Shown here: positions 27,584 through 64,000 of the stretch, one piece after another
How the letters are laid out: each line of letters starts with the position of its first letter
Position numbering within the stretch: the first letter of the stretch is position 1
Source: Patescibacteria group bacterium
GTDB taxonomy: Bacteria > Patescibacteriota > CPR2 > UBA1875
Length of the DNA stretch: 64,000 bases
Assembly: GCA_041737595.1 (NCBI GenBank)
Contig: JBGSRK010000010.1
Coordinates: 117,375-181,374, forward strand
Direction of reading: 5' to 3'
Notes under the pieces: model-generated
Told to the model about the DNA's origin: nothing
Database searches by the model: none
What the model saw: only the letters and a program-made list of their open reading frames with translations
Program-made: the position numbers and the translations under genes

Positions 27584-27727
27584 AATTACCCTCCTTAAAT
27601 TTTATTGAGTATTATAAAATATAATTCTCATGAGGAACGAACTGCATTCATATTAAATAAAGAGTACGCCCTCCGTAACTTTACTTATTTTATTTTATTG
27701 ATATTTTTTGATAAAATCAATAGCAAT

Positions 27728-28470: not shown

Positions 28471-29031
28471 ATGGACGTTGATACTATTGTAAAAAATAAA
28501 AAAGAAGATAAAAAAGACTTAAAAAAAGAGATTGAGAAGCCAAAAGAAAAAGTCGAGGTTCCAAAAAGAAAAGCTATACTTTCTTGGGAGTCTTCAGATA
28601 ATTTATCTGTTCAAATTAATCCTTTTGTAATAACTTTATTTGTCATATTCAATTTAACAGCAATTGCTTATTTTGTATGGAAAAAGGATTGGTTTCCTAT
28701 ACCTGTTATTGTAATAATTTCAGGTATTTTTATTTGGTATAAAATTTCTATTAAAGAAGAATTAAAAAAATATTCCATTGAAAGAATGGGTGTTAGAATT
28801 AATGATTATTTTTATCCATATTCTGAAATACATTCATTTTGGATTATTTATAACGATAAAGTAAAAAATCTTTATATAACCTTTGTAAAAAGATATTTAC
28901 CATCAATTGTAATTGATCTTAGTAACGCAAACCCACACAATGTAAAAATTGCTTTAAGCCGACGCATACCCGAACAAACTCAAAAATCTGAAAATCTTTT
29001 AGATAAATTAGTAAGATTACTTAACCTTTAG
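28471..29031 (+). CDS. Hypothetical membrane protein (Lys-rich N-terminus, 2 TM)
   Basis: 186 aa with no recognisable family. Confidence 0.35.
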   Translation: MDVDTIVKNKKEDKKDLKKEIEKPKEKVEVPKRKAILSWESSDNLSVQINPFVITLFVIFNLTAIAYFVWKKDWFPIPVIVIISGIFIWYKISIKEELKKYSIERMGVRINDYFYPYSEIHSFWIIYNDKVKNLYITFVKRYLPSIVIDLSNANPHNVKIALSRRIPEQTQKSENLLDKLVRLLNL

Positions 29032-30506: not shown

Positions 30507-32120
30507 ATGCAGGAGGGTACACAAAAAGATATACGGTCAGTTGTTTCTTCATATAACCGAGATGAAATAGAGAAAGCGACTGAAGAACAAGCAAAGGAAT
30601 TGAAGATTCCTTATTATGATGTTAGAAAATCTGAAATCGCAACCGATATTCTTTCATTAATAAATAAAGAAGAAGCTCAAAGAGGAGTTATTCCGATTAT
30701 GTTGAAGAATAAATCTTTGAGTCTTGGAGTTACTGATGTTCGCGAAGATAAGATCCAAGATATTATTAGTTATTTAAAAAATAGTTTTAATATTAATAAA
30801 GTATTAATTTCTTGGGCATCTGTTAAAGATATTCTCCCAAGATACGATGGGTTAATAAAAAGAAATCTTGAAGAAAAAGAAGATTATGAGATCACCGCAA
30901 CTGAAGGAATATTAACTTTTTCTGAATTAGAAAGCCAAATAAATTCTGCACCACTCCAAAATATTTTAAGCTTTATTGTTTCTTCGGCTATTTCTTCTAA
31001 TGCCTCTGATATACACCTAGAACCTCAAAAAGAGGGGGCAAGAATTAGATTCCGAGTTGATGGAGTACTACATGTTGTTGGTACTATGGGTGAGGAGAGA
31101 TTTAAATATATTTTATCTCAAATAGAACTTTCTGGTGGGATGAAGCTTAATGTAGATGAAGCTCAAGAAGGAAGAATTGAGATAAAAATGGCTAAAAAAA
31201 ATATCAGTGTTCGTATTGAAACAATGCCAACACTTTATGGCGATGATATTTCTTTGCGTATTTTTAATACAGAGTCAACTTTGCTGAATCTTTCAGATTT
31301 AGGGTTATATGATTATAATTTAAAATTAATTAATAATTCACTAGCCAGACCCCAAGGAATGATTTTGGTTGTTGGACCAACTGGAGCAGGAAAAACCTCG
31401 ACAATTTATGCGGTATTAAATGTACTAAATAAACCAGAAGTAAAAATTATTACCCTCGAAGACCCAATTGAATATGCTCTAACTGGAATTACTCAAAGTC
31501 AAATACATGAAGATGAGAGCTTTAATATAAGGCTTAAAGCTGTTTTAAGGGAAGACCCAGATATTGTTATGGTTGGAGAAATTAGAGATGCTGAAACAGC
31601 CGATGTAGCACTCCACGCAGCATTAACTGGCCATGTTATGATATCAACCTTTCACGCCTACAACGCCGCAACAGCGGTTACATTACTCAGGGAGATTGCA
31701 ACTAATGGAACATTACTAGCTTCTGCAATAAATTTAATAATTGCTCAGAGATTAGTTAGAAGAATTTGTGAAAAATGTAAAATAGAAAAAAAATTGACTG
31801 AAAAAGAATACCAATATGCTGCAGATTTGTTTGATGAAATACCTGATGAAATAAAAGGTGAAAGAAAATTATCATTCTTTGAGGGCAAAGGTTGTGAAGA
31901 ATGTAAGGGGATCGGATATAAAGGTAGAATTGCTATTCATGAAATGCTACAAATGAATGTTGAATTTCAAAAAGTTGTCGCAAGAGAAGATATAACTGTT
32001 AGTGAAATCCAAGAAGCGGCAAAAAAATCTGGAATGGTTACTATGGAACAAGATGGGCTCTTAAAAGCAATTGATGGGATTACATCACTTTCAGAAGTAA
32101 TGAAGGCAATAAAAGAATAA
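30507..32120 (+). CDS. GspE/PilB-family secretion/pilus assembly ATPase
   Basis: 537 aa. Walker A VVGPTGAGKTS, ITLEDPIEY, a His box, and the C-terminal tetracysteine CEKC...CEEC motif of PilB/GspE are all present. Confidence 0.8.
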   Translation: MQEGTQKDIRSVVSSYNRDEIEKATEEQAKELKIPYYDVRKSEIATDILSLINKEEAQRGVIPIMLKNKSLSLGVTDVREDKIQDIISYLKNSFNINKVLISWASVKDILPRYDGLIKRNLEEKEDYEITATEGILTFSELESQINSAPLQNILSFIVSSAISSNASDIHLEPQKEGARIRFRVDGVLHVVGTMGEERFKYILSQIELSGGMKLNVDEAQEGRIEIKMAKKNISVRIETMPTLYGDDISLRIFNTESTLLNLSDLGLYDYNLKLINNSLARPQGMILVVGPTGAGKTSTIYAVLNVLNKPEVKIITLEDPIEYALTGITQSQIHEDESFNIRLKAVLREDPDIVMVGEIRDAETADVALHAALTGHVMISTFHAYNAATAVTLLREIATNGTLLASAINLIIAQRLVRRICEKCKIEKKLTEKEYQYAADLFDEIPDEIKGERKLSFFEGKGCEECKGIGYKGRIAIHEMLQMNVEFQKVVAREDITVSEIQEAAKKSGMVTMEQDGLLKAIDGITSLSEVMKAIKE

Positions 32121-42803: not shown

Positions 42804-43424
42804 TTAGAGCCCTAGTGCCTCTTTAGCACGCTTTGTAGCTCTTTGTAGCTGGGTTCCTTCGTAGTTTAGTGTCCCGACCCTGTCAACAGCTTTCATGAAC
42901 TCCATGTCGCTTGCTTGTTCGAATAGTAGTTGTTCTATTTCTTTCTTTGTGCATCTAGAAGAAAAAACTCCTCCAAGATGAGCAACAAGGTTCCCTCTCT
43001 GAGAACCAAGCGGAATAAGCCCTTCAAAAGAGATTATCCGCCCTTCATTTTGGTAAATCCCATTTGTTAGCGGTAACAAGGTGTGGGCAACTGCTCGAAT
43101 TTCTGGCTCAATCTCTCTTGCAACAGACAAAACCCCCAGCTGAGCCTCTTCGTTCATATCTCGATAATGGTCAGGGAGACCATACCTGTGTAGAACGGAG
43201 TTTGCCGTAATCACGCCATTGATGCCCTGTTCTTTCAATTTCTGTATGGAGTTCTCGGCAATTGGCATAAGATCAGCCGGAATCATACCCTCAAGGTTCT
43301 CGAGGGCTGATTTGTTTAATGCTGTAGCCACGATAAACATTGGGCCAACGTCTCCTCCACAAGTAGCAAGAGAAGAGACCAATACTTTAAGCGCTTGGCT
43401 TGTAATAAGTGTCACTTCTCTCAC
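42804..43424 (-). CDS. Hypothetical protein adjacent to hypC (hydrogenase-associated?), elevated GC (~45%)
   Basis: 206 aa: MREVTLITSQALKVLVSSLATCGGDVGPMFIVATALNK... I recognise no family. It is 3 nt downstream of hypC on the same strand. Confidence 0.35.
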   Translation of the reverse strand: MREVTLITSQALKVLVSSLATCGGDVGPMFIVATALNKSALENLEGMIPADLMPIAENSIQKLKEQGINGVITANSVLHRYGLPDHYRDMNEEAQLGVLSVAREIEPEIRAVAHTLLPLTNGIYQNEGRIISFEGLIPLGSQRGNLVAHLGGVFSSRCTKKEIEQLLFEQASDMEFMKAVDRVGTLNYEGTQLQRATKRAKEALGL

Positions 43425-45803: not shown

Positions 45804-45841
45804 TGTGGAAAATCGATCTTAAAAAATACTCTTGTGGAAAA
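45804..45841. promoter_or_regulatory. Two DnaA-box-like sites (TGTGGAAAA) upstream of dnaA
   Basis: tgtggaaaa at about 45804..45812 and 45833..45841, in the rpmH-dnaA divergent intergenic region. Confidence 0.6.
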
Positions 45842-45888
45842 CTATTTATTTGCTCTATAATAGTACTACTAAAGTATAGGGCTTTTAT

Positions 45889-47238
45889 ATGGTAGATAAA
45901 TCCAGCGCATGGCAGGCTGTATTAGGGGAACTGGAGGTCGGCTTATCGCGGGCTAATTTTACGACGTGGTTTAAAAACACCAGCCTTTCTGATTATCAAG
46001 ATGGTATTGTAATAGTTTCTGTTCCAAATATTTTTACCAAAGAATGGCTTGAGAACAAATACCATAAACAAATAGCGGATGCCCTTAGAAAGATTATTCC
46101 AGAAATTAAATCTGTAACATATCAAGTTGGCGGAAATATTGTAAAAAGTGAATCTATCACGCCTACTATCGAAGAGGTAGTAAAAATTGAAGAAAAAACC
46201 CTTCCTGAATCTTTTGGTGATCTAAACCAAAAATATACTTTTGAAAGCTTTGTCCCTGGGGATAATTCTAAGCTTGCATTTGCAGCAGCTCAATCTGTTG
46301 CAAACAATCCAGGAGAAGAATATAATCCTCTCTTTATTTATGGTGGAGTTGGTCTTGGAAAAACACATTTAATGCAAGCAATAGCACATGCCATATTAAA
46401 AAAAGATCCTAAGAAAAAAATTGAATATGTCTCGAGTGAAAAATTTACCTCTGATTTTGTTAATTCTTTAATGAATAAAAGTACAAATCGTTTTAAAGAT
46501 AAATATAGAAAAATTGATGTTTTATTAGTTGATGATTTACAGTTTTTAGGTGGTAAAGAACAAACTCAAGTTGAATTTTTTCATACGTTTAATGAATTAC
46601 ATCAAGCAAAAAAACAGATTATTTTAGCATCTGATAGACCACCAAGATCTATCCCTACTCTTGAGGATAGGTTGCGCTCTCGTTTTGAGTGGGGATTGAT
46701 TGTTGATATACAACCTCCTGATCTTGAAACAAGAATTGCAATTTTACAAAGAAAGGCACAATTAAGAGGAATAAATATTCCTTTAGAGGCCTTGGATTAT
46801 ATTGCTAAACAAATTCAAAATAATATTCGAGAATTAGAGGGTGCTTTAAATAGAATTTTTGCTTATTGTGAATTAAATAATACTCAACCTGATTTACCAA
46901 CTATTACAAACATTTTAGGAGGCTTACTTGCTGGTTCAAAAAGAAGAGGTGTGACTCCAAAACAAATTTTAGATAAAACAGCAGATTTTTATGATATAAG
47001 TATTGAAGAAATTACTGGTCCTAAAAGAGATAAAGATATCGTTTTACCACGTCAAGTTGCTATGTATTTAATGAGAGAAGAACTTCATTTATCATATCCT
47101 AAAATAGCAGCAGAGGTAGGTAAAAAAGACCATACAACAATTATGCACGGGGTTATTAAAATTGAAAAAGAAATTGATGCAAATGAAAGATTAAGACAAG
47201 AAATTGGTTTAGTTAGAGAAAGGTTATATATGAGGTAA
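45889..47238 (+). CDS. dnaA: Chromosomal replication initiator DnaA
   Basis: 449 aa with AAA+ Walker A GGVGLGKTHL, and a C-terminal DNA-binding helix VAMYLMREELHLSYPKIA...DHTTIMH. Confidence 0.95.
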   Translation: MVDKSSAWQAVLGELEVGLSRANFTTWFKNTSLSDYQDGIVIVSVPNIFTKEWLENKYHKQIADALRKIIPEIKSVTYQVGGNIVKSESITPTIEEVVKIEEKTLPESFGDLNQKYTFESFVPGDNSKLAFAAAQSVANNPGEEYNPLFIYGGVGLGKTHLMQAIAHAILKKDPKKKIEYVSSEKFTSDFVNSLMNKSTNRFKDKYRKIDVLLVDDLQFLGGKEQTQVEFFHTFNELHQAKKQIILASDRPPRSIPTLEDRLRSRFEWGLIVDIQPPDLETRIAILQRKAQLRGINIPLEALDYIAKQIQNNIRELEGALNRIFAYCELNNTQPDLPTITNILGGLLAGSKRRGVTPKQILDKTADFYDISIEEITGPKRDKDIVLPRQVAMYLMREELHLSYPKIAAEVGKKDHTTIMHGVIKIEKEIDANERLRQEIGLVRERLYMR

Positions 47239-47506
47239 TTAGTTAAAACTGTGTAAAAGTAGTTATTTTCTGTGGATAAAACCGATATACTGGGTACAAC
47301 TTATATAATATATAATATATAAAGAATATTATACACAGATAATAATTAATAAATCAGACTAAAAATCACAAGTAACACACATTATTAAAAACCAATTTTT
47401 TACTATTATATAAGGTAAAAATACACTTATAACCAATATCCACAAAGTATATAGTAATAATAATTAATTTAATAAAAGAAATATATTATTAAAAGAAGGA
47501 GATTAA
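47239..47506. other. Probable oriC: AT-rich dnaA-dnaN intergenic region with DnaA boxes
   Basis: 268 bp at more than 80% AT. It has a perfect DnaA box tgtggataa (47271..47279) and tatccacaa (47437..47445). Confidence 0.65.
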
Positions 47507-49708: not shown

Positions 49709-49975
49709 ATGGGTAATTTAGGAAATATATTAAAAAACAAAATAGAAGAACTTGGAATTTCAAAACAAGTTGAAGCGGTTGATATTGTAGAGCGCGCAAC
49801 TAAAGAAATTGCAAAATTTATTCCAGCAGAAGACTTTGAAGTTGTTAGTTTTAATAAGGGAATAATAAAAATAGCAGTAAAATCATCTTCAGTAGCCAAT
49901 GAAATATTATTTTTAAAACCAAAAATTATTATTTTAAAAACTAATAAGCTTAAAATAAATCAAATAAACCATTAA
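49709..49975 (+). CDS. DUF721 (DciA-like) small protein following recF
   Basis: 88 aa. Its position after recF and its pattern (..QVEAVDIVERA...VVSFNKGIIKIAVKSSSVANEI) fit DUF721. Confidence 0.45.
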   Translation: MGNLGNILKNKIEELGISKQVEAVDIVERATKEIAKFIPAEDFEVVSFNKGIIKIAVKSSSVANEILFLKPKIIILKTNKLKINQINH

Positions 49976-50661
49976 ACTGGTACTTCACTGATAATTACAT
50001 TTTCTGGATTAGCCCCAACAGATGTGAGCCAGTCTTTTATTAGTTCATTTATTACAGAAATAGGTTTTTTGTTTGAATATTGGACCTGAATCTCGGTTGT
50101 ACCATTACGATTTTCAAATGCATGTACGATAGTAAAAAAATCTTTTTCTATTGGAATATCTTTAACAAATTCGAACCCTTCCACATAGCCTTCTTCGAAT
50201 TGGTCAGTTCTTTCTGTGTCTAACCTTTCTAGATAGGGGCTTATTTCATCTAAATTATTTAACTCTCTTGTTATAAATAATATTTCTAGACCCCTCCCCT
50301 TTATACCAGTAATACCAATCGGGAATATTAGTAATTTGTATTCCGTATTAGGAAAAAGTTTTTGGCCCTCTTTACTCTTAATTTTTAATATTTTCCCATC
50401 AGAAAAGCCAATAAGTTCATTTTTAACACCAATTTTATCTGAAAATAATTGAATATTATTAATTTGATTAGAGTTTATTTTTTTACTAAAAGTTAGATTA
50501 ATATTGGGCTCAAGTGAAACATTCTTACTCCCATTTTCTGGTTCGACAGCCACGATTTTTGGCGGAGAAATATATACAACAACTCCAACAATAATAACCC
50601 AAAACAATAAAGCCAAAACCGCTATAAGTATAAATTTATTATTTTTATAAGAATCATTCAT
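49972..50661 (-). CDS. Membrane-anchored protein with Ig-like domain (possible VirB8-like component of the adjacent T4SS module)
   Basis: 229 aa with an N-terminal TM and PKIVAVEPENGSKNVSLEPNINLTF, a bacterial Ig-like segment. The stop abuts the CHAP gene start. Confidence 0.35.
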   Translation of the reverse strand: MNDSYKNNKFILIAVLALLFWVIIVGVVVYISPPKIVAVEPENGSKNVSLEPNINLTFSKKINSNQINNIQLFSDKIGVKNELIGFSDGKILKIKSKEGQKLFPNTEYKLLIFPIGITGIKGRGLEILFITRELNNLDEISPYLERLDTERTDQFEEGYVEGFEFVKDIPIEKDFFTIVHAFENRNGTTEIQVQYSNKKPISVINELIKDWLTSVGANPENVIISEVPV

Positions 50662-51768
50662 TTAATACCTCGTTAAACTGCCGACATTTGTCCACCTGCT
50701 GCGTCCATAGTCTCTATAACTATTTTTTTCTACACATGTTCCAGAATTTCCCTCTATAGTATAAAGGGTTGTCCCAACAATTTTCCAAACAATTCCCACA
50801 TGACCCGTTCCACCGCTTCTTGGAGCATAAACAATATCTCCTGCCTGCGGGACTACAACATCTATATCATATTCATATGGCATTGATTTATAAGAAAGAA
50901 GTGCACCACAAGTTTTGGGAATATTAGAGCCAGCTTTATTATACACCCAACTGACAAAGGCAGCACACCAAGGTGCTCCACAGGCGCAACCTGCATATAA
51001 TTGATATTTACATACTGGGCCATAATTTTGTTGACTGCCAGTACCGCAAACCGGTAAATTTGCCTCTACCAGTGCAATATCAACAATCATCCCCTTTACG
51101 CCACTTGGACTGCCCGGAGTAGTTGGCGGCGCCACAACAGTTGGCGGCGCGGTTCCCCCTCCTACACCAGTCGGGACTGGACTCCCAATAAATCCAATAA
51201 TTCCCGAGACAACAAACCCGACTAAAATTAAAACAAGAATAATCGCGATAACTACTAAAATCGCCCAACCAATGGGATTACTAACTAAAAAAGCAATAGC
51301 GCCTCCACCCTCTGTTGCAGCTGTAGCTGTTTCTGCCGCTTCAACAGCAACTTCTGTTGCTTCTAGGGCTGCTTCTGCTGCTTCGGCAGCTTCTGCTATC
51401 TCACCAGCCTCACCCCCTAATTCACCAAGCTCACCAGCCTCACCTAACTCTCCTGTTTCTCCTAGTTCACCGCCCTCAGCTCCTTCACCGCCCTCAGGTC
51501 CTTCATTAGTTTCATTAGATTCAGAATTTTTTTCTTTATCATTTTCGGTTTCATTTTTTTCTTTATCTTCTTTATCTTCTTTTTTGTCTTCCTTGTTGTC
51601 CTCTTTTTCTTTTTTCTCTCTTTCGTTGTCATTGTCCCGATCATCATCATCATCTTCTTCATCATCATCATCAAATTCATCATCAAATTCATCATCCTCA
51701 AAATCATCTAAATAATCTTTATCTGGGTCAAAGTCTGGATCATAAAAATTTGGGCTAGCCTGTGCCAT
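50662..51768 (-). CDS. CHAP-domain peptidoglycan hydrolase with acidic low-complexity N-terminus and TM anchor (VirB1/PrgK-like)
   Basis: 368 aa. A D/E-rich N-terminus and (G-E-[LA]) repeats precede TM IAFLVSNPIGWAILVVIAIILVLILVGFVV. The C-terminal CHAP domain has Cys (CGAPWCAAFVSWVY) and His (GHVGIV). Confidence 0.7.
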   Translation of the reverse strand: MAQASPNFYDPDFDPDKDYLDDFEDDEFDDEFDDDDEEDDDDDRDNDNEREKKEKEDNKEDKKEDKEDKEKNETENDKEKNSESNETNEGPEGGEGAEGGELGETGELGEAGELGELGGEAGEIAEAAEAAEAALEATEVAVEAAETATAATEGGGAIAFLVSNPIGWAILVVIAIILVLILVGFVVSGIIGFIGSPVPTGVGGGTAPPTVVAPPTTPGSPSGVKGMIVDIALVEANLPVCGTGSQQNYGPVCKYQLYAGCACGAPWCAAFVSWVYNKAGSNIPKTCGALLSYKSMPYEYDIDVVVPQAGDIVYAPRSGGTGHVGIVWKIVGTTLYTIEGNSGTCVEKNSYRDYGRSRWTNVGSLTRY

Positions 51769-53536
51769 TATTGCTTTCCTCTAATCTGTTTAATTGTTCA
51801 GGGTTTGTTGTAATTAATATATCCTCTGCATAAGACGGAGTTATTTCAATCGCAGCATGATCTTGTCCTGCAAAAAACAATCCTTCGCCGACTTCACAAT
51901 TAAGTAAGAAAAATTTTTCTGCTTGAGTTAAGTTAAAAGCCTCTACAACCATGTCAACTGCAGACGGATGTTGTTTTAATAAAATACTCATTGATGAATT
52001 ACTAATAATAGCTTTGCCATAATTAGAACCCAAAAAATCTTCTACATCTTGGACTATAGTTGTTATTCCTAAATAATACTTTCTTGCTCTTTTTGCCATA
52101 GAAAAAAGAAATTGAGCTGAATCTCGATATTTCATTAATATCCAAGCTTCATCAACCGCTAAAATCCTTTTTTTACGAGAACCTTTTATTCTATTCCAAA
52201 TAAAGTTTAAAACCATATACATTACCATTGGCCTTAGTTCGTCCTCAAGGTCTCGTATAGAGAAAACAATAAATCTATTATCAAGGCTTATATTTGATCT
52301 TCTATTAAAAATACCAGCAAAAGTTCCACTAACAAATTTACTTAAAGATGAGTTTAGTGTTTCAGCTCCTTTTAAGGATGAAAGTATTTTTATTAAATCA
52401 TCCATAATAGGGGGTTCTAGCCCGTGGGTAGATGGGTCTTTTGTGATACCCCTTGATGCATAACATTGAACTAGGGCTTGATCTAGCAGATTATCTTCAA
52501 CGGGCGATATTTTCCCTCCAGCCATTATTCTTAACAATCCATGTAAAAGAATAATATTTGATCTTAAGCTATTACCTGCATCTTCTGGATCATCTGGGTC
52601 TACCACCGGTAAATCAAATGGGTTAATAACATATTCAGAATTAATATTTAAGTTTAGATATGAACCTCCCACTGCCTTACAAAGCCGTTCATATTCGTTT
52701 TCTGGATCTATTACAAGTACTTCTGTCCCGGTTATCAAATATCTTAAGAGTTCTAGTTTTACCGAATAACTTTTCCCAGAGCCAGACTTTGCGAGTATTA
52801 CAGAATTTGCATTTTCCAAACCAAAACGATCAAAGAATATAAGCCCATTTGTGTGCTTATTTAAGCCATAAAGTATCCCATCATTTCTAGACATATTACT
52901 TGAAGCAAATGGGAAAAATGTTGAAAGTGCACCAGTATCAAGATTTTTTGAAACCATTAAGTCATCTTTACCATAAGGGAAAGAGACATTTAGCCCTTGT
53001 TCTTGTTGGAAAATAGCAGGCTTCATCATAATTAAGGACCCACCTAAAAGATTTTCTAGTACCTTTGTTAATGATTCTAGCTCTTCTTTAGATGAAGCAA
53101 AAATTGTGAAGTACAAAGATGCTTTAAATAATTTTGCTTCACCTCTTTGGAGTGAATCTCTAAGATCTTCTACATCAAAATGAGCCGTTTCTAAAAGAGG
53201 ATCACGAACCTTACCTTTTACCTGATTCTCATAAACTTGAGATTCGATTTGAGCAGATTTGTTTCTTAATTTTTTTAAAGTATCTTGTGTTTCAACAGGA
53301 TAAATAAACAAAGAAGTATTAAGTGAAAAATCTATATTAACAACAGGTGAAAGCCAATCGGTGTATAGAACTCTTGGGTAAGCATAAACAAAAAAAGTTC
53401 TTACATAATATGTTCCAAGTTGGATATAACTTGATTCAACCGAAATTGCTGAAGGGGAAATAATATCTATTATTGATGTTCCTCCTTCACTTATTATTTT
53501 TTGATCATTGTTTTTATTATTATTAAAAATGTTCAT
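51755..53536 (-). CDS. VirB4/TrsE/PrgJ-like type IV secretion ATPase, C-terminal two-thirds
   Basis: 593 aa with YVRTFFVYAYPRVL, Walker A AKSGSGKSYS, Walker B ILAVDEAW, and a C-terminal VirB4 motif. Confidence 0.85.
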   Translation of the reverse strand: MNIFNNNKNNDQKIISEGGTSIIDIISPSAISVESSYIQLGTYYVRTFFVYAYPRVLYTDWLSPVVNIDFSLNTSLFIYPVETQDTLKKLRNKSAQIESQVYENQVKGKVRDPLLETAHFDVEDLRDSLQRGEAKLFKASLYFTIFASSKEELESLTKVLENLLGGSLIMMKPAIFQQEQGLNVSFPYGKDDLMVSKNLDTGALSTFFPFASSNMSRNDGILYGLNKHTNGLIFFDRFGLENANSVILAKSGSGKSYSVKLELLRYLITGTEVLVIDPENEYERLCKAVGGSYLNLNINSEYVINPFDLPVVDPDDPEDAGNSLRSNIILLHGLLRIMAGGKISPVEDNLLDQALVQCYASRGITKDPSTHGLEPPIMDDLIKILSSLKGAETLNSSLSKFVSGTFAGIFNRRSNISLDNRFIVFSIRDLEDELRPMVMYMVLNFIWNRIKGSRKKRILAVDEAWILMKYRDSAQFLFSMAKRARKYYLGITTIVQDVEDFLGSNYGKAIISNSSMSILLKQHPSAVDMVVEAFNLTQAEKFFLLNCEVGEGLFFAGQDHAAIEITPSYAEDILITTNPEQLNRLEESNNGTG

Positions 53537-53539
53537 TTT

Positions 53540-54196
53540 TTATTTTCCTGTAACCATGTCACCGCTTATGGAATTTATGGCATTCCCAATCTTAATATTT
53601 GTTGCAATATCGGGGTTGTAAAGAATATAAATTAAATCTGCAATTTGTTCAGTATTTAATACTTTTCCCGTAAGTCCCATAGACGTTACTCCATTAACAA
53701 TTTGTTCTATTCTGGCCATTAAACCTTTTTTATTTTCCTCAAATTCAGACATGGGGTTTGTTTTTGAACCAAAAAACCCACCTTTATTTAAATTAACAGG
53801 GTAAAAAGACACAACTATATAAAACTCCTTATCCATAATATTTGCCTGTGTAAGTAACATTTCTATAAATGTTTTATATTCTTCTGCCTGGATTTTTATA
53901 AAGGGGCTTTGCTCAGCTCCAATTATTGTTTCTAACTTAGTTAAATAATCAGTTAAATCTAATTTTCTTGAAACAGAAAGTATTTGAATTGGGAATTCTA
54001 TTGAATTTAAAAAGGATTGGTATGCATAAGAAACAGATTCTTTTTCCGTTTCACTTTTTAAAGATAAATTAATCGAAGAAATAGAAACAATAGAACGGAG
54101 ACTTCCGTCCTTCATAATTATTACACCCTCCTTAATATCCTTTATTGGGACAATATTTTGGCTAGGTGCAGAAGATTTTTTATTCCCCTGTGACAT
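53540..54196 (-). CDS. VirB4-like N-terminal domain encoded as a separate ORF (split gene or pseudogene fragment)
   Basis: 218 aa. IVPIKDIKEGVIIMKDGSLRSIVSISSINLSLKSETEKESVSYAYQSFLNSIEFPIQI is the typical N-terminus of Gram-positive VirB4 homologs. It is separated from the ATPase ORF by a single TAA. Confidence 0.6.
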   Translation of the reverse strand: MSQGNKKSSAPSQNIVPIKDIKEGVIIMKDGSLRSIVSISSINLSLKSETEKESVSYAYQSFLNSIEFPIQILSVSRKLDLTDYLTKLETIIGAEQSPFIKIQAEEYKTFIEMLLTQANIMDKEFYIVVSFYPVNLNKGGFFGSKTNPMSEFEENKKGLMARIEQIVNGVTSMGLTGKVLNTEQIADLIYILYNPDIATNIKIGNAINSISGDMVTGK

Positions 54197-54234
54197 ATAA
54201 TAAGTTTAACAGATTATCGCACTTGTTTTAATAT

Positions 54235-54828
54235 CTAATTTCTTCGTCTTCTTTTAATTTCAATTTGAGGATTGTCAAAATTTTGTTTTGGAGATACGCT
54301 AGCAAGCTGCGAAAGAAGGGGTTCGGCATCTTTTTTTGAATTAACAGTACTGTTAATTGTACTATCTAAAAAACTATTTTTTTCCATTATTGGGTCCGGG
54401 GCTCCCGGATAATCAAAATTAGATTTATCAGAAACCCTAGCTGCGTTTTTTAATTTCTCCTGTATTTGTTCTAGACTTTCTCGTTTAACGGCTCGAGGAG
54501 TTTCTTCTCTTTTGTTCGGTTCTGTTTGTTCTATTTTTTCAGCCTCTCTTTTCCAAACCATTTTACGAGGATTAATGTATGAACCAATAGCATCAATAAT
54601 AATTTTTTCTAGGTGTTGACCGCCATAATCAAAAAAAGCTAATCCAAGTGCTCCTGCAATAATTATCATAGAAAAAAGATAAAAGAAAAATCTAATGGGC
54701 CCGTATAGTGCAAAATTTAATACAATAATTAGTCCAACCCCAATTAAGATTATAATAAATTGCCTAAGCGTTAATGGCCCGACAACCTTATCTTCTATAT
54801 CTATATTTTGTGGGACTTTGTATTCCAT
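54235..54828 (-). CDS. VirB3/PrgI-like small membrane protein
   Basis: 197 aa with two N-terminal TM helices after LTLRQFIIILIGVGL. It is positioned between the VirB6-like and VirB4 genes. Confidence 0.5.
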   Translation of the reverse strand: MEYKVPQNIDIEDKVVGPLTLRQFIIILIGVGLIIVLNFALYGPIRFFFYLFSMIIIAGALGLAFFDYGGQHLEKIIIDAIGSYINPRKMVWKREAEKIEQTEPNKREETPRAVKRESLEQIQEKLKNAARVSDKSNFDYPGAPDPIMEKNSFLDSTINSTVNSKKDAEPLLSQLASVSPKQNFDNPQIEIKRRRRN

Positions 54829-54840
54829 AATATTAAAATA

Positions 54841-56751
54841 TTATTTAAACTTAGGGTCATTAATTGTGTCTTGACTAGTACCGGGTCCCATTGAGGCTGC
54901 CATTTTAGACCTTGCTTCTCTGCTATCATTTGTAGCACGTTCACTCCAATTGCGCGCATTCTTTGGATCTGCAAAATAATCTACATAATGGTTTTGAGCT
55001 TCTGCGGCCCATTGTTGTTCACCATCCCAATTGCCCGCAGCATCAATAACGTCTGCCATTTTGCCAGACATATTAATAGGGTTAACCTTGTCAATCTCTG
55101 CCTTAGCCATTTTGCGGGCATTTCTAATGGTTTTTGCTTGAGCTGCAACTGTTCCACCTTCGCCCTCCATTGCAGTTAATTGAGCTTCTGACATATTTAT
55201 TCTTGCACTTTGATCAGTGTCTTTGGCAATATCAAGTGCATAATCTTTTACCATAGAAGATAGCCCTGCACTGTGGCCGTTTTTTAATAACATATTCCTT
55301 AAATCGCCATTTTCTGGTCCTTTTAATGCGGCCGGGTTATCTTTGTGAACTAATCTTAATAGTGCTATTTCTTCATTCTCACTTAAATTACCCTTCCTAA
55401 GAAGTTCAACCATTTCCTCATAACCCTTACCTTCATGTATTTCTGAAAATGCACCTTGCTGTTGCTGATTAAATCTATTTTGAGCGCTCTTATCTTCTTC
55501 TGTCCCAATAAGTTTATCAAGCCCCAATAATCTTCTCCCAAGTGGATTATTTTCATTGGCAAGCATTCTACCGGTCTTGGCGCGTCGAAGCGTTCTATTG
55601 CGAGCTGCTTTATCTTTCCATCCTTGAGACATCAATCCTAGTCCGGATTTATCAGATGCGTAACCAAGCGCCGCCCCCTTGGCCACCCCACCTATTTTTG
55701 AAAGAACTCCCCCAATTCCAGCCGTAACTGCCCCTCCGTTTTTTATTGGAATAGCAAATGCCATAAAAAATGCAACACAAAGCATCAAAGAAGCCATTAT
55801 AAAGTCATTTATCCCAGAAAATGCCATTATCGCCGAACCAATAAATAAAATAGCCATAATTTGGATTCCCATAAGACCCCACTTAAAAAATTCAGACCAC
55901 CACTTTTTGTATAAACTTTCAGTGAAAGGCAAAAGATTTGCAAGAGCCGCTAACGGTGAAATTACAATTAATAGATAAAGCATAAAAACTCTTACTCCCA
56001 GAAGAATCCAAAGCCCAATTGCAGGGAAAAGTATGATTATAGAAACGATTACGGCTAGCACAAGATTAATAACTGCCGTCGCAGTCCCAATTCCGGAAGT
56101 TGCAGCTACCCCCATATCTCTAAATGGTTTATACCAATCCCCGCCAGGGATAACAACATTATATATATTATCCACTAACATGTTTTCTATAGCACTAAAA
56201 AAACCAAGCAAGAAATCCGCAATAGCATAACTGAAAAGAGCTAAAAATAGAGTAACGACTAATTTTGGTATAATCTTCCCTAGCCCATATTTATCTCTTT
56301 GAAGGTTTAAGATATTCATTACGGCAATAATGATTATTGCTACTGAAAGTAGCCCTAATCCCAAATCTCTAAAATGAGTCCAAACTCGCTCCATGCTTCC
56401 ACTGTAAGTTGGGCTATAGGTAAGATTATTTCCCCAATCAAGAGCAGTTTTTATTGCAAAAATACAAAAACTAGAAACCCCGCCAAGTATCGCCCTACCA
56501 ATATCGGTAATAAAATTATTAATCAGCCCTGTGATACATAGTGACCATTGCCAAGGGAGAAGACTACCGCATTCTGGTGGGGTTGTGGTTGGGATTGGGG
56601 TGGGTGGAGTATATGTTGGGACGGTGTATGTTGGTGAAGCTCCTCCTCCAGGGCCAACAGAAGCAGCTCTCAAACTAACAGGAATAAATAAGCTCTGGGA
56701 CATAAATAGCGCCAGAGTCAAACTGATAATTATTTTTTTAAACACCCTCAT
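54841..56751 (-). CDS. VirB6/TrbL-like polytopic membrane protein with Pro/Thr-rich N-terminal stalk
   Basis: 636 aa with a signal peptide, PTYTVPTYTPPTPIPTTTPP, more than 6 TM helices, and a hydrophilic C-terminal 250-aa domain. Confidence 0.5.
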   Translation of the reverse strand: MRVFKKIIISLTLALFMSQSLFIPVSLRAASVGPGGGASPTYTVPTYTPPTPIPTTTPPECGSLLPWQWSLCITGLINNFITDIGRAILGGVSSFCIFAIKTALDWGNNLTYSPTYSGSMERVWTHFRDLGLGLLSVAIIIIAVMNILNLQRDKYGLGKIIPKLVVTLFLALFSYAIADFLLGFFSAIENMLVDNIYNVVIPGGDWYKPFRDMGVAATSGIGTATAVINLVLAVIVSIIILFPAIGLWILLGVRVFMLYLLIVISPLAALANLLPFTESLYKKWWSEFFKWGLMGIQIMAILFIGSAIMAFSGINDFIMASLMLCVAFFMAFAIPIKNGGAVTAGIGGVLSKIGGVAKGAALGYASDKSGLGLMSQGWKDKAARNRTLRRAKTGRMLANENNPLGRRLLGLDKLIGTEEDKSAQNRFNQQQQGAFSEIHEGKGYEEMVELLRKGNLSENEEIALLRLVHKDNPAALKGPENGDLRNMLLKNGHSAGLSSMVKDYALDIAKDTDQSARINMSEAQLTAMEGEGGTVAAQAKTIRNARKMAKAEIDKVNPINMSGKMADVIDAAGNWDGEQQWAAEAQNHYVDYFADPKNARNWSERATNDSREARSKMAASMGPGTSQDTINDPKFK

Positions 56752-56831
56752 AACTCTATTATATATTTAAGTTGTTATTACGCAATAAAAAAAATACCAA
56801 ATAACTTTAGTATTTTTTTATTTTTTAAAAT

Positions 56832-57143
56832 TTACGCAGTGGCGATTGTTTTTGCCCAGTTTAAGATAACAAGAGCCAAAACAACAACAATTACACCGAT
56901 GACTGCATTTAAGATAGCTGTTCTTGCTTCAGACGCTTTTCCAGAATCTCCTTGAGCTAAAATATATTTAACACCTGCATATACTATATATGCAACTGCA
57001 ATAGCTCCAACAAACCAAAGAATATATTCAAATATTCTTATAATTGTTGCCTTTGGGTCTCCTGCACCACTGGCTAGAGTGATGTTTAAGTCACCTGAAC
57101 TGATTGCAATCTTAGTCCCCATGGCTAATAATTTTTCGTTCAT
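56832..57143 (-). CDS. VirB2/TrbC-like pilin paralog 4
   Basis: 103 aa. Two hydrophobic helices flank GDSGKASEAR. Paralog of the three genes upstream. Confidence 0.45.
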   Translation of the reverse strand: MNEKLLAMGTKIAISSGDLNITLASGAGDPKATIIRIFEYILWFVGAIAVAYIVYAGVKYILAQGDSGKASEARTAILNAVIGVIVVVLALVILNWAKTIATA

Positions 57144-57194
57144 AATTCCTCCTTCTTAATAAATGATATTAATTTTATCTGAATAAGTCAACTT

Positions 57195-57509
57195 TTATAT
57201 TAATACTTCTCCCCAAAAACTAGATACCCAGTTTATAATTACAGCAGATATGCCGATTAAAACAACTCCAATTACAGATATTAAAATAATTTTTCTTGCT
57301 TCGGCAGCTTTCCCCGCGTCTCCTTCGGCCATAATATATTTAACCCCCCCATATATAATTGAACCAAGCCCAACCCCAACTAAAATAGGCACTAATAGGT
57401 TGTTTAAATATTTAAAAACCAAATCTTGAATACTACTACCTCCATACACGGCCGAACCTGGGAGAGTGACTGTAGCAAAATTAGTTATATTTTTTACATA
57501 TTTTTTCAT
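57195..57509 (-). CDS. VirB2/TrbC-like pilin paralog 3
   Basis: 104 aa with ...GGVKYIMAEGDAGKAAEARKIILISVIGVVLIG... Confidence 0.45.
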   Translation of the reverse strand: MKKYVKNITNFATVTLPGSAVYGGSSIQDLVFKYLNNLLVPILVGVGLGSIIYGGVKYIMAEGDAGKAAEARKIILISVIGVVLIGISAVIINWVSSFWGEVLI

Positions 57510-57513
57510 AATA

Positions 57514-57846
57514 TTAACTCGTGATACTTATAAATGTGCTAATAATAAATCCCGACGCAATAATTATTGAAAGTCCGACAAGAGAGGCGATTATTATTTT
57601 TCTCGCTTCAGTAACCTTATTTTGATCACCACCAGACATAAATAATTTGAATATACCCCAGAAAAACATTGAGACTGCTATTGCCCCAACAGCTCCAATT
57701 GCTATATTTTTTACTATGTTAACAAAAATAATTAAATCACTCGCGGTAGCGGGGTTTGGACCATTTAACCAACTAAAAATACCAGCTGCATTTACTGCTT
57801 TTGGTGTTATTAAATAATGAATTATTTCTATTAATGCCATATACAT
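57514..57846 (-). CDS. VirB2/TrbC-like pilin paralog 2
   Basis: 110 aa with ...FKLFMSGGDQNKVTEARKIIIASLVGLSIII... Confidence 0.45.
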   Translation of the reverse strand: MYMALIEIIHYLITPKAVNAAGIFSWLNGPNPATASDLIIFVNIVKNIAIGAVGAIAVSMFFWGIFKLFMSGGDQNKVTEARKIIIASLVGLSIIIASGFIISTFISITS

Positions 57847-58229
57847 GATGCCAGGGTATTTATCCCTAAAAAATTATAGATTAAAAAATAAGAAAATAAA
57901 AGCAACCCAAGGCCTGAAAGTACACCATAAATATACTCTTTTGCTTTGTCTATTTTATTTGTGTCACCAGCAGAAGTCATCCATAGATATCCAGCAAAAA
58001 TAAGTACAAGAGTAGCAACGGGGATTAAAAGTCCAGATATCCATTGCCAGACACTACAAATCCAACAATCATAATCCATAGAACCCGAAATACCACTACG
58101 ACATGATTCCCAGGGATCTCCCGGCGCAGCGAAAGCAATCTTTGCATAAAGGTTTAATAAGAAAGAGTATAATAATATTTTTTTCAATTTCATCTCTTTT
58201 ATAATATATAAGAAAAAATCTTTTCTCAA
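57831..58229 (-). CDS. VirB2/TrbC-like pilin paralog 1 with Cys-rich N-terminal extension
   Basis: 132 aa with a signal peptide ...AKIAFA/APGDP, five Cys in the N-terminal region, then ...MTSAGDTNKIDKAKEYIYGVLSGLG... Confidence 0.45.
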   Translation of the reverse strand: MRKDFFLYIIKEMKLKKILLYSFLLNLYAKIAFAAPGDPWESCRSGISGSMDYDCWICSVWQWISGLLIPVATLVLIFAGYLWMTSAGDTNKIDKAKEYIYGVLSGLGLLLFSYFLIYNFLGINTLASCIWH

Positions 58230-58256
58230 GTTCTTTTTATCTAGTATAATAAATAC

Positions 58257-58742
58257 ATGACACTTTCATGGGACCTATTTGTACTTCTTTTTACCGGAAT
58301 TATTGTTGTATATTCTATTCTTTTAGGTAGAAATAGAATAGTCGGTATTCTTATAAATATATATATTTCTCTTGCTGTAACATTAGTTGTTGGTGATGCG
58401 GTTTATAATTTAGTTTCTAATTTTACAATTATCTCGAATAGATTTTCCGTAACTGAATTTGCCGTAAAAACAATATTCCTAGTAACCGTCACGGCTCTAC
58501 TTTCAATTAAAAGTGAAATCGCTGGACTTGATAGTGGAGGATCAGTATCAAAAATTCAAGCAGGCATTTATGGGTTTTTGACTTCTGGTTTTATTCTTTC
58601 TACAATCTTTTCATTTATGGCTGATTCGCAAATAATTGCCCTTGATTCAAATTTTGTAAATTTAATAGTAAGTTTTTATATGGTACTTGTTGTTGCCCCA
58701 ATATTATTTATGATTGGAACTGCATTTACTAAAAAGTTCTAA
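58257..58742 (+). CDS. CvpA-family-like small membrane protein
   Basis: 161 aa with 4-5 TM helices. The N-terminal DLFVLLFTGIIVVYSILLGRNRIVG resembles Colicin_V/CvpA. Confidence 0.4.
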   Translation: MTLSWDLFVLLFTGIIVVYSILLGRNRIVGILINIYISLAVTLVVGDAVYNLVSNFTIISNRFSVTEFAVKTIFLVTVTALLSIKSEIAGLDSGGSVSKIQAGIYGFLTSGFILSTIFSFMADSQIIALDSNFVNLIVSFYMVLVVAPILFMIGTAFTKKF

Positions 58743-58798: not shown

Positions 58799-58817
58799 CT
58801 ACACTACTACGTAGTAA
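58799..58817. repeat. 19-bp repeat copy B1 with 12-bp perfect palindrome TACTACGTAGTA, downstream of the second TrpR-like gene
   Basis: ctacactactacgtagtaa is identical to 59266..59284. Confidence 0.75.
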
Positions 58818-58844
58818 GACAGTGGTAAAAAAATATTTTAAGAT

Positions 58845-59201
58845 TTAATTAGGAATAATTCTTTTAATAACAGCAGGAGAACCTTTATAACCACGAGGAG
58901 AATATTTATGAATAGGTTTCTTATTATTTATTGCAATCTTTTTAGAAGTTCTTCTAAAACCAAAACCAATTTGATTGGCAACCCTTCCTATGGTGGTTGG
59001 GCTTACACGAAGTATATCTTGTATCTCTAAATATGAAGTACCCATATCTAATAATCTGACAATTTCTAATCTTTTAGCCATATCATTTATTTCACGAGGT
59101 GTTAATATTCTATCAAAAAGTACACGAACTTCTTTGTCGCTATTTGTCTTTGCAATAACTTGAATCAATTTATTGATTTCTTTTTCTCTCCAGTAATCCA
59201 T
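58845..59201 (-). CDS. TrpR-like DNA-binding protein, YerC/YecD family (paralog 2)
   Basis: 118 aa. MDYWREKEINKLIQVIAKTNSDKEVRVLFDRILTPREINDMAKRLEIVRLLDMGTSYLEIQ... is about 55% identical to 23574..23954. Confidence 0.7.
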   Translation of the reverse strand: MDYWREKEINKLIQVIAKTNSDKEVRVLFDRILTPREINDMAKRLEIVRLLDMGTSYLEIQDILRVSPTTIGRVANQIGFGFRRTSKKIAINNKKPIHKYSPRGYKGSPAVIKRIIPN

Positions 59202-59265: not shown

Positions 59266-59284
59266 CTACACTACTACGTAGTAA
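59266..59284. repeat. 19-bp repeat copy B2 (palindrome TACTACGTAGTA) in promoter region of TrpR-like paralog 2
   Basis: Identical to 58799..58817, about 65 nt upstream of the start codon at 59201. Confidence 0.75.
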
Positions 59285-59436
59285 TGTAGTGTTAATTACT
59301 TGTTGTTGATACTCTAAATCTATAAATTATATATTAATAAAAAATATTAGTAACGATAGCGTTAAAAATATAAAGAATATTAAAATCTTAATCAAAAGAG
59401 CCCGCTTGGGGGAGCGGACTCAAAAACAGGGGAAAG

Positions 59437-61649: not shown

Positions 61650-61740
61650 TACACTATAACTTATCCACAGGTCAAGAATATTATAAATATATAAATATAG
61701 TATACATAAAGCTAAATAGCAAATATTATGTATACTATAT
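61650..61740. promoter_or_regulatory. Three copies of 11-mer TGTAYACTATA (two forming a 13-nt inverted repeat) upstream of lexA; candidate SOS/LexA boxes
   Basis: tgtacactata (about 61650), atatagtatacat (61695..61707) and atgtatactatat (61728..61740) are reverse complements of each other. Confidence 0.4.
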
Positions 61741-61762
61741 ATAAAAGAGACTATTTTATATA

Positions 61763-63332: not shown

Positions 63333-64000
63333 TTAAATTTCTTCATCTTGTTCTTCAACTTCTTCTAAAACCTCAGAAATATCTGAAACTAGTACATCTC
63401 TTGGTCTTGCTCCATCGGCAGGGCCGATTATATCACGTTCTTCTAGTAGGTCCAAGAGTCTTGCTGCCCTCGCGTAACCTATCCTAAGACGTCTTTGCAG
63501 AAGAGATGCAGAGGCCTTACCTGCTGCGATTACACAATCTGCAGCATCAATAAACAAGTCATCATCTGGCGCACTAAGATCACCTAAAGACCCACGAACT
63601 GGCTGTTTTAATATTTCTTCATTATACTCTGGTTCTCCCTGAGATTTTATAAAGCTAGCGATACTATTAATCTCTTTTTCTCCAACCATCGCACCCTGAA
63701 TACGTTTTGGTTTTGGAGTTTCAGCTGAAACAAACAGCATATCACCCATTCCTAGTAATTTTTCTGCTCCAGATTGATCAAGAATTGTTCTTGAATCAAT
63801 TTGCGAAGCAACAGAAAAAGCAACTCTAGTTGTGACATTTGCTTTAATTAACCCTGTAATAACATCAACAGAAGGTCTTTGAGTTGCAAGAATAAGATGG
63901 ATCCCAATTGCACGAGCGAGTTGAGCAAGTCTAACAATATAGCCTTCAACCTCTTTCGCTGAGATTGCCATAAGTTGAGCAAGTTCATCAATCACAATTA
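63333..64000 (-). CDS. ftsK: DNA translocase FtsK/SpoIIIE, C-terminal part (5' portion beyond window end)
   Basis: ...LILATQRPSVDVITGLIKANVTTRVAFSVASQIDSRTILD... is the motor domain. The C-terminal winged-helix gamma domain reads SLLQRRLRIGYARAARLLDLLEERDII. The in-frame ORF is open to position 64000. Confidence 0.85.
   Translation of the reverse strand, partial: IVIDELAQLMAISAKEVEGYIVRLAQLARAIGIHLILATQRPSVDVITGLIKANVTTRVAFSVASQIDSRTILDQSGAEKLLGMGDMLFVSAETPKPKRIQGAMVGEKEINSIASFIKSQGEPEYNEEILKQPVRGSLGDLSAPDDDLFIDAADCVIAAGKASASLLQRRLRIGYARAARLLDLLEERDIIGPADGARPRDVLVSDISEVLEEVEEQDEEI

Follow-up and report, generated by a model that had tools for sequence, protein, structure and literature searches.

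A Gram-positive-type type IV secretion system (T4SS), with VirB4, VirB6 and VirB2 and an array of small secreted proteins, was described in Nanosynbacter lyticus TM7x by McLean 2020 (PMC7427843). In the case of Southlakia epibionticum ML1, transposon sequencing (Tn-seq) identified the genes SEML1_0006-0019, pilins included, as essential for epibiotic growth; the essential pilin series lies inside the cluster, which has no recognizable coupling protein or relaxase (Wang 2023, PMC10633639). Quinonero-Coronel 2025 (PMC12102498) placed such systems in a monophyletic clade inside the mating-pair formation class FATA (MPF-FATA), with TrsD, PrgI, VirB6 and VirB2 arrays, no relaxase in most cases and a position near dnaA/dnaN, and a 2025 review (PMC12857230) regards the Patescibacteria systems as newcomers to the T4SS superfamily. 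Here we describe a T4SS gene cluster at 49972-58229 on the minus strand of a 64-kb stretch of contig JBGSRK010000010.1 from a Patescibacteria bacterium (CPR2; UBA1875). The whole stretch is referred to as the window, and all coordinates are window positions unless a locus number (L001 and so on) is given.

The locus is very probably a vertically inherited chromosomal Patescibacteria T4SS that derives from an MPF-FATA conjugation machine, has kept the envelope parts and has lost the DNA-processing parts. A first-pass annotation of this DNA had proposed a domesticated, non-mobile T4SS of Gram-positive style, and that reading is supported, since the family calls, the absence of mobility genes, the native composition and the synteny all fit it.

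Gene content of the cluster

Ten densely packed open reading frames (ORFs), all intact according to the ORF list and translations, were found at 49972-58229 (-), with gaps of 3 nt, 12 nt and 38 nt and a single 14-nt overlap among them. All ten had been placed on the minus strand by the first-pass annotation, and the majority of its gene labels were borne out by Pfam and NCBIfam profiles. This is a genuine ten-gene T4SS cluster without DNA-transfer genes. For comparison, one genome per species was scanned, which gave 565 VirB4 relatives, and the best 80 loci were compared with the window.

The VirB4 ATPase (593 aa; 51755-53536, -) was assigned to the CD1110 family of MPF-FATA (NF045971, 360.5 bits, cutoff 325). 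It also matched PF19044 (95.8 bits) and the Thermoanaerobacter VirB4 structure (PDB 4AG5, E=3e-46); a Walker A-type motif (AKSGSGKS) is present in the translation, and a Walker B-like motif (ILAVDE) was found via pattern search. In a similarity ranking, which is not a tree, this VirB4 is an MPF-FATA relative whose nearest relatives are within Patescibacteria (51-68% identity to proteins of metagenome-assembled genomes (MAGs) vs 30-37% to VirB4 of monoderm plasmids).

The TrsD-like protein (218 aa; 53540-54196, -) matched the TrsD model NF041427 (E=2e-7, under the NCBIfam cutoff) and the N-terminal portions of three VirB4 models, and has a precomputed TraC-like match (PF26593). On the CD1110 model, the 218-aa ORF covers positions 2-123 and the 593-aa ORF positions 176-729. 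Thus, the two cover complementary parts and together tile a full-length VirB4, and the 218-aa protein is, as judged from these alignments, the equivalent of a free-standing VirB4 N-terminal domain. The literature names the gene 5' of virB4 TrsD and reports it as the most widespread component after VirB4 (PMC12102498). The two ORFs had been described as a split VirB4, which is correct in that they tile one protein, but no lesion is involved: the junction is TAA-AAA-ATG, and TrsD is a separate gene beside virB4 in 47 relatives' loci. A lesion in virB4 was ruled out because of this recurrence, and the two genes are regarded as a conserved TrsD and VirB4 pair.

A PrgI/VirB3 homologue was found beside this pair, as had been predicted (197 aa; 54235-54828, -; PF12666, 50.8 bits, cutoff 27), and it is conserved at the same position in 42 relatives' loci. 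Single-sequence PDB searches using TrsD and PrgI gave no matches.

The next gene encodes a VirB6-like polytopic membrane protein (636 aa; 54841-56751, -). At its N-terminus lies a signal or transmembrane (TM) segment; residues ~126-342 form a hydrophobic core, and the C-terminal half is long and hydrophilic. No direct Pfam match was obtained for the 636-aa protein, so the support for VirB6 comes via remote homology. When a profile was built from 25 syntenic homologues, its top PDB match was TrwI/VirB6 of R388, a weak one (E=0.013) across 220 residues of the TM core. TrbL/VirB6 was the sole Pfam family to recur among the relatives (five of 25, then ten of 44; best E-value 3.2e-6), and hhalign aligned the family with a TrbL_4-like protein of the Embleya conjugative cluster described below (97.7% probability, E=1.4e-12). 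The family is large, with 24,442 representative homologues at 50% clustering. The VirB6-like call had been named as a point on which the interpretation could fail; TrwI, TrbL and hhalign bear it out at the level of remote homology.

Four tandem VirB2-like pilin genes, within the range of 2-11 divergent pilin genes looked for near virB4, precede the VirB6-like gene, and each reaches the gathering score of PF18895 (T4SS_pilin, 26.6 bits), in agreement with the four pilin-like genes expected. Pilin 1 (57831-58229, -) scored 30.0 bits and matched TrbC as well (PF04956, 28.6 bits). Its ORF opens at TTG 58229; the Logan gene call has 120 aa, and the start is more likely ATG 58193, which gives a 120-aa protein with the Sec-type signal peptide MKLKKILLYSFLLNLYAKIAFA. 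Pilin 2 (110 aa; 57514-57846, -) barely reached the cutoff (26.7 bits) and shares 28-31% identity with the other pilins. Pilin 3 (104 aa; 57195-57509, -; 31.9 bits) is 50% identical across 52 aa to pilin 4 (103 aa; 56832-57143, -), which had the highest score of the four (49.3 bits). All four have two hydrophobic helices at the C-terminus, and their pairwise identity is 20-50%; the mean identity in Patescibacteria pilin arrays is 25% (PMC12102498). A promoter-like sequence 5' of pilin 4 (TTGACT-17-TATCAT, 57191-57163) is a consensus match alone. The promoter scan of the window returned 41 sites vs 41.8 expected, which is chance level, and no operon boundaries were therefore drawn from it.

Two genes follow virB4. 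The first encodes a CHAP cell-wall hydrolase in the VirB1 role (368 aa; 50662-51768, -), as had been called (PF05257, 41.2 bits; NlpC/P60, 23.1 bits). The protein consists of an acidic low-complexity N-terminus, one TM segment (residues 155-200), a Pro/Thr linker and, at the C-terminus, the CHAP domain, whose sequence shows candidate catalytic Cys and His residues. Homologues at the same position were seen in L010 and L044 only. Within residues 1-150, an extreme acidic, lysine-rich stretch of low complexity is followed by GE(L/A)GE-type repeats ahead of the TM segment; in the DNA, these correspond to short tandem repeats (families D2 and D6).

The second gene encodes a bitopic membrane protein (229 aa; 49972-50661, -) with an N-terminal TM segment, an Ig-like Big_5 domain (PF13205, 39.9 bits) and a small alpha/beta C-terminal domain. 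The call of an Ig-like TM protein was thus correct. In addition, a VirB8/NTF2 fold had been proposed for this protein; when this was tested, no such fold was found, and the 229-aa protein was rejected as a VirB8/PrgL/TcpC-like component. It is a lineage-restricted accessory gene.

In the nearest relatives, the variable module after virB4 consists of two bitopic proteins, a wall hydrolase of the cysteine-peptidase type (C39_2, NlpC/P60+M15 or CHAP) and a beta-sandwich membrane protein (PEGA or Big_5). From this module the window retains only the hydrolase and the beta-sandwich protein. Nine nearest relatives (L004-L013 compared) have a ~210-270-aa bitopic protein directly 3' of virB4, usually followed by a second one. 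A profile of these bitopic proteins (A5) gave no PDB match and was unrelated to the Big_5 protein.

The interval given by the first-pass annotation was 49972-58742. T4SS genes were confirmed up to 58229, but the end at 58742 belongs to a plus-strand gene for a polytopic membrane protein (161 aa; 58257-58742, +) that has no Pfam match and no assigned family. Among the 80 loci, a homologue was found in L005 only, likewise beside the pilin array, and the 161-aa protein is considered as a candidate T4SS member only.

Mobility genes and sequence composition

The absence scans were carried out with Pfam on ~60 window ORFs (all but a few short ones) and reached 50 kb to the left of the locus and 5 kb to the right. 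No VirD4/TcpA coupling protein, relaxase or integrase was detected among these ORFs, at the locus or elsewhere, so that the earlier statement to this effect holds for the window. The sole FtsK/SpoIIIE-family protein is an FtsK fragment with an FtsK gamma domain at the right edge (63333-63995).

The composition of the T4SS genes is native, as had also been stated. Their GC content is 0.347 vs 0.314 +/- 0.043 for the other genes, their GC3 is inside the spread of the other genes, and their codon-usage distance is ordinary (27.7% of random gene subsets were equally far or farther). No convincing att-like direct repeats bracket the cluster, and no tRNA was found within 6 kb of its borders. With relaxase, type IV coupling protein (T4CP), integrase, att repeats, tRNA border and foreign composition all lacking in the window, an integrative and conjugative element (ICE) or conjugative plasmid of the MPF-FATA type was rejected.

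Sequence outside the window edges was sought by exact-match look-ups, which gave short Logan contigs from SRR28170473. A large serine recombinase with Resolvase and Recombinase domains was observed ~8 kb outside the left edge of the window (L001 9704-10978). It is the nearest recombinase, lies >57 kb from the T4SS and has no apparent link to it.

Relatives and chromosomal position

The best 80 of the 565 VirB4 relatives are nearly all from Patescibacteria MAGs. The highest identities were found in UBA1875 (68%) and STE_72 (66%), followed by Howlettbacteria, CPR2 and several Saccharibacteria (~60%) and by the others (51-55%). The order pilin array-VirB6-PrgI-TrsD-VirB4 is common to the clade of the window and Saccharibacteria. 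In about 30 of the 80 loci (Saccharibacteria, CPR2, Howlettbacteria and UBA1875-type), virB4 is followed by 2-4 variable genes and then by recF-dnaN-dnaA. The first-pass annotation had asked whether the locus is syntenic or sporadic, and it proved to be syntenic beside recF-dnaN-dnaA across many Patescibacteria genomes. A core order kept at a fixed chromosomal site across lineages points to vertical inheritance, not to an ICE.

The window shows the same chromosomal position near dnaA/dnaN. The genes dnaA, dnaN and recF directly adjoin the T4SS cluster, and recA-lexA and a gene for a TrpR-like regulator lie on its far side. The cluster had been placed between recF-DUF721 and recA-lexA; recF, recA and lexA are as described, but the 88-aa "DUF721" ORF had no Pfam match at E<=0.001, and it is kept beside recF in relatives. 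The putative oriC region consists of dnaA (45889-47238) and its flanking spacers (45804-47444 in all); 2.5 kb separate it from the T4SS operon end. Five DnaA-box-like 9-mers, one of them perfect, were found in the two short spacers, compared with 26 across the 64 kb. A position next to oriC, as proposed earlier, is therefore plausible from dnaA-dnaN-recF and these 9-mers, but the GC skew tracks gene orientation without a clean flip at dnaA, and the origin is not proven.

In four more distantly related loci (L017, L042, L066 and L079), recA was observed directly 5' of virB4 on the same strand. Two of these are labelled as Patescibacteria group, one as Gracilibacteria and one as Peregrinibacteria. 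This adjacency is a further linkage of T4SS and recombination genes within the phylum.

Proposed function and alternative explanations

By homology, the TrsD and VirB4 pair would dock at the membrane via PrgI/VirB3 and power assembly, and the VirB6-like polytopic protein would, by remote homology, form the membrane channel. The CHAP hydrolase would make a local opening in the peptidoglycan. Given their family and the literature on relatives, the four divergent pilins would be exported by Sec and polymerised by VirB4; the product, a short pilus or tube of the conjugative type, would extend to the host cell on which the bacterium lives. As the locus has no relaxase or coupling ATPase, relaxase-piloted plasmid DNA is unlikely as cargo. 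The system most likely serves contact with the host and the exchange of macromolecules with it. In a cultivated relative, tubular structures at the parasite-host interface, which are possible T4SS pili, and uptake of host RNA have been reported (bioRxiv 10.64898/2026.06.21.733656).

Several points weigh against this interpretation. The role of the system in the window organism is read from genes alone. The window spans just 5.3 kb to the right of the locus, so a T4CP or relaxase may be present elsewhere in the genome, and VirD4-like genes are distant from virB4 in most Patescibacteria genomes (PMC12102498). The VirB6 label leans on remote homology and is accepted as such. When a deeper VirB6 profile (77 sequences) was used, the TrwI match was lost and only low-complexity noise remained, which leaves the 25-sequence profile, the TrbL matches and the hhalign result as the support; in addition, the AF2 model of the 636-aa protein was poor (pLDDT 41.9, 5-sequence alignment). 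No VirB8-like component was found. Finally, the bitopic pair of the nine nearest relatives has no counterpart anywhere in the 64 kb by tblastn. The machine in the window may be an incomplete one, or one that works with different parts.

Four alternatives were considered. In the first, which is possible and is a specific version of the preferred explanation rather than in contradiction with it, the locus encodes an import machine like Ced/Ted or ComB, in which pilus and channel take up host DNA or RNA for a cell unable to make nucleotides. VirB2, VirB6, VirB3 and VirB4 without T4CP or relaxase is the makeup of known import systems (PMC9905601), and the 2025 survey, which favours the import hypothesis, reports for class ABY1 a linkage of the T4SS with comF, recG and radA (PMC12102498). 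In S. epibionticum, comEC is dispensable and the T4SS essential (PMC12857230, PMC11665869), and the host RNA uptake and possible T4SS-pilus tubes of the cultivated relative mentioned above agree with import. On the other hand, the match to the CedB-family ATPase model is far under its cutoff (NF041017, 41.9 vs 700 bits). The position of the locus between dnaA-dnaN-recF and recA-lexA, and recA beside virB4 in the four Gracilibacteria/Peregrinibacteria-type loci, would also suit import. However, recF-dnaN-dnaA is the standard origin cluster, so this neighbourhood says little on import; the recA-lexA adjacency was seen in one close relative only (L005), and no LexA-type box is common to the lexA promoter and the T4SS vicinity.

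The second alternative, an effector exporter whose proteins are injected into or released onto the host bacterium and manipulate or permeabilise it, in the manner of effector-translocating T4SSs, is rather doubtful. The window yielded no candidate effector and no secretion signal, and the locus is without a coupling protein to recruit cytoplasmic substrates. The known exporters without a T4CP draw their substrates from the periplasm and monoderms have none, which counts against this alternative. Nevertheless, effector export has been speculated for Saccharibacteria (PMC10633639; PMC11665869), and T4CP-less exporters are known (Bordetella Ptl and Brucella VirB; PMC12102498, PMC12857230).

Conjugation in trans, by a working mating-pair module that relies on a coupling protein and a relaxase from other parts of the genome and still transfers DNA to other cells, is very unlikely. 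The remoteness of VirD4-like genes in most Patescibacteria would allow it, t4cp genes are often distant from virB4 in conjugative systems (PMC12102498), and the absence scan covered the window part of the source contig (190-kb). But just 103 of 3,035 Patescibacteria genomes yielded a relaxase, and in S. epibionticum the T4SS genes are essential but the VirD4 homologue is not (PMC12102498); the conserved synteny beside dnaA points to a housekeeping role.

Lastly, although relaxase, T4CP and integrase are absent among the scanned window ORFs and two bitopic genes of the nearest relatives are missing, the locus can hardly be a decaying functionless remnant of an integrated conjugative element that lost its mobility genes, given the ten intact ORFs with the Walker A/B motifs of VirB4 and the Cys/His motifs of CHAP, the native GC and codon usage, no att-like repeats or border tRNA, the same core order and chromosomal position in Saccharibacteria, CPR2 and related lineages, and the essential homologues of a cultured relative (PMC10633639).

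Neighbouring genes

The gene on the far side of the 161-aa gene encodes a Trp-repressor-family regulator (118 aa; 58845-59201, -; PF01371, 62 bits). Two 30-nt repeat copies (family D3) with the same palindrome (CACTACTAC-GTAGTA) flank it, copy A at 58799-58828, 3' of the gene, and copy B at 59266-59295, 65-94 nt 5' of its start codon. The copies are 87% identical, with 19 nt exact, and a 15-mer of the repeat has only two exact copies in the window (chance expectation 0.5 at <=3 mismatches). Copy B is a candidate auto-operator of the trpR-like gene, to judge by its placement. Copy A sits between the convergent trpR-like and 161-aa genes, with no T-run after it. A second Trp-repressor paralogue (23574-23954, -; PF01371, E=2.3e-15) was observed beside an M23 peptidase gene and has no copy of the palindrome.

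The first-pass annotation had noted a TrpR-like regulator with its own palindromic sites immediately upstream of the T4SS. The gene and the sites are real, but no link to the T4SS was seen: the sites flank their own gene only, and no copy of the palindrome was detectable in the pilin upstream region or T4SS promoter. TrpR as a T4SS regulator is thus unsupported, as the repeat is confined to its own gene, no homologue of the gene occurs in the relatives' loci and a paralogue is present elsewhere in the window.

Upstream of lexA (61655-61745), a long inverted repeat was observed (TATAGTATACATAA, 16 nt, TTATGTATACTATA) together with a further GTATAC motif. It may be an unusual LexA operator. A perfect DnaA-box 9-mer (TTATCCACA) is located in the same region at 61661-61669. 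No Gram-positive Cheo box was found in the whole window. An SOS link to the T4SS was rejected, as there is no Cheo box and the lexA-promoter inverted repeat recurs neither near recA nor near the T4SS. Between lexA and recA lies a gene for a 23S rRNA-intervening-sequence protein (PF05635; 60577-60972, -), and a tblastn match to it was also found between recA and lexA in the relative L005.

A phosphoribosyltransferase and double-zinc-ribbon protein, which we read as ComFC-like, is encoded at 27605-28417 (+), and a PilB-type T2SSE ATPase at 30507-32120 (+). The presence of these genes points to parts of a type IV pilus distinct from the T4SS, and perhaps of a competence apparatus, within 20-30 kb of it. 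The remaining window genes are housekeeping genes (glycosyltransferases, dTDP-rhamnose pathway, dnaK/dnaJ/grpE/hrcA, NiFe hydrogenase, the PilB-type ATPase, yidC and rnpA). Three ORFs had no Pfam family at E<=0.01 (17142-19205, -, 687 aa; 28471-29031, +, 186 aa; 42804-43424, -, 206 aa).

Comparison with known systems

The T4SSs of Saccharibacteria (S. epibionticum SEML1_0006-0019 and TM7x) have the same core as the window, namely a pilin array, VirB6, PrgI/VirB3, TrsD, VirB4 and a downstream hydrolase. They are likewise without relaxase or T4CP at the locus and lie beside recF-dnaN-dnaA, and their VirB4 is 51-60% identical to that of the window. Differences were observed as well. The VirB6-like protein has 636 aa in the window and 800-1300 aa in Saccharibacteria, and virB4 is followed by two genes (CHAP and Big_5) in the window and by genes for very large proteins (850-1100 aa) in Saccharibacteria. 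The pilin genes are co-oriented with virB4 in the window and its nearest relatives but divergent in most Saccharibacteria loci. Unlike in the Saccharibacteria reference loci, recA-lexA and the TrpR-like gene are found on the far side of the cluster in the window.

The system class, the missing relaxase and the near-origin position were already published between 2020 and 2025. Every element of the first-pass finding is in print (PMC7427843, PMC10633639, PMC12102498), and the locus adds no new concept. Conserved envelope machines are few in this phylum, which holds a large share of bacterial diversity, and the class is one of them; in the single species tested, it is essential. Its ten genes make the locus described here a compact variant, from a lineage related to CPR2/Howlettbacteria/UBA1875. 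It lacks two bitopic proteins of its nearest relatives and may help to define the minimal gene set.

The ComB system of Helicobacter pylori, a diderm, belongs to MPF-T and has the core-complex proteins VirB7-10. It is not known to have a VirD4, a relaxase, PrgI/TrsD-type parts or a CHAP hydrolase. ComB is a T4SS for DNA uptake and has been cited as a precedent for import in Saccharibacteria (PMC11665869). The Ced/Ted systems of archaea are domesticated chromosomal T4SS derivatives with a VirB2-like pilin, a VirB6-like channel and a VirB4-like ATPase but no relaxase, and they assemble a conjugative-type pilus (PMC9905601). Import was shown experimentally in these archaeal systems only, and their resemblance to the window is, beyond the generic VirB4 fold, one of composition.

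With the conjugative T4SSs of MPF-FATA (CTn2 CD1110, pCF10 Prg/Pcf and pGO1 Trs), the window shares a VirB4 that passes the CD1110-family cutoff. A match in gene order was found on a plasmid of Embleya sp. NBC_00896 (NZ_CP108778.1), whose VirB4 is 37% identical to that of the window and whose order, pilin (PF18895)-VirB6-like-PrgI-(TrsD)-VirB4-...-NlpC/P60-type hydrolase, is shared. Between VirB4 and the hydrolase, the Embleya cluster has a T4CP and a replication-relaxation gene, and the window has neither. As the Embleya backbone matches that of the window, these inserted genes mark what the window lacks. Further differences are the number of pilin genes (four in the window vs one detected in Embleya) and the location (chromosomal beside dnaA vs plasmid-borne). 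The PrgI family protein of Embleya (350 aa; L085 7305-8357) also matches the TrsD of the window and thus resembles a fusion of PrgI and TrsD, in support of a functional link between the VirB3-like and TrsD-like parts.

A cluster without T4CP or relaxase within 9 kb was found on the 898-kb replicon of Pontibacillus sp. ALD_SL1 (NZ_CP062975.1), which is typed as non-mobilizable. It contains two PF18895 pilins, a VirB6-like protein (TrbL, E=1.7e-4), PrgI/TraL-like and TrsD-like proteins, a VirB4 36% identical to that of the window and a large peptidoglycan endopeptidase. Pontibacillus is a free-living member of Bacillota, and the cluster, which is apparently undescribed in the literature, adjoins flagellar and chemotaxis genes, not dnaA.

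PF18895 pilins lie just 5' of the VirB6-like genes in Embleya, Pontibacillus and Priestia (72, 47, 27 and 42 bits), at L084 NZ_CP062975.1 4420-5332, L085 NZ_CP108778.1 4520-5050 and L086 NZ_CP045273.1 6823-7221 (Priestia). They were detected only via Pfam and BLAST on those few loci, which is not a systematic survey, and tblastn of pilin 4 against the plasmids gave no matches. The published view is that, outside Patescibacteria, Gram-positive T4SSs have no VirB2 pilins (PMC12102498, PMC12857230, PMC9905601). The pilins of Embleya, Pontibacillus and Priestia run counter to this view and suggest, from their family matches, that a pilin was already present in some monoderm modules; in that case it was inherited by Patescibacteria, not added there.

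Tentatively, the system may be pictured as a conjugation machine running in reverse as a "feeding tube", in which a monoderm VirB2-type pilus, with its pilin inherited from pilin-bearing monoderm conjugation modules, pierces the host and the VirB6/VirB4 channel draws in host RNA or DNA. If true, this would account for the retention of a T4SS next to the origin in tiny genomes and for its being indispensable to relatives. The pilins in the Bacillota and Actinomycetota clusters, one of which (Embleya) carries a coupling protein and a relaxase-like gene, may matter more than the locus itself, as they bear on the "no pilin" view of Gram-positive systems and on the origin of the Patescibacteria system: some Gram-positive conjugative systems may likewise build VirB2-type pili.

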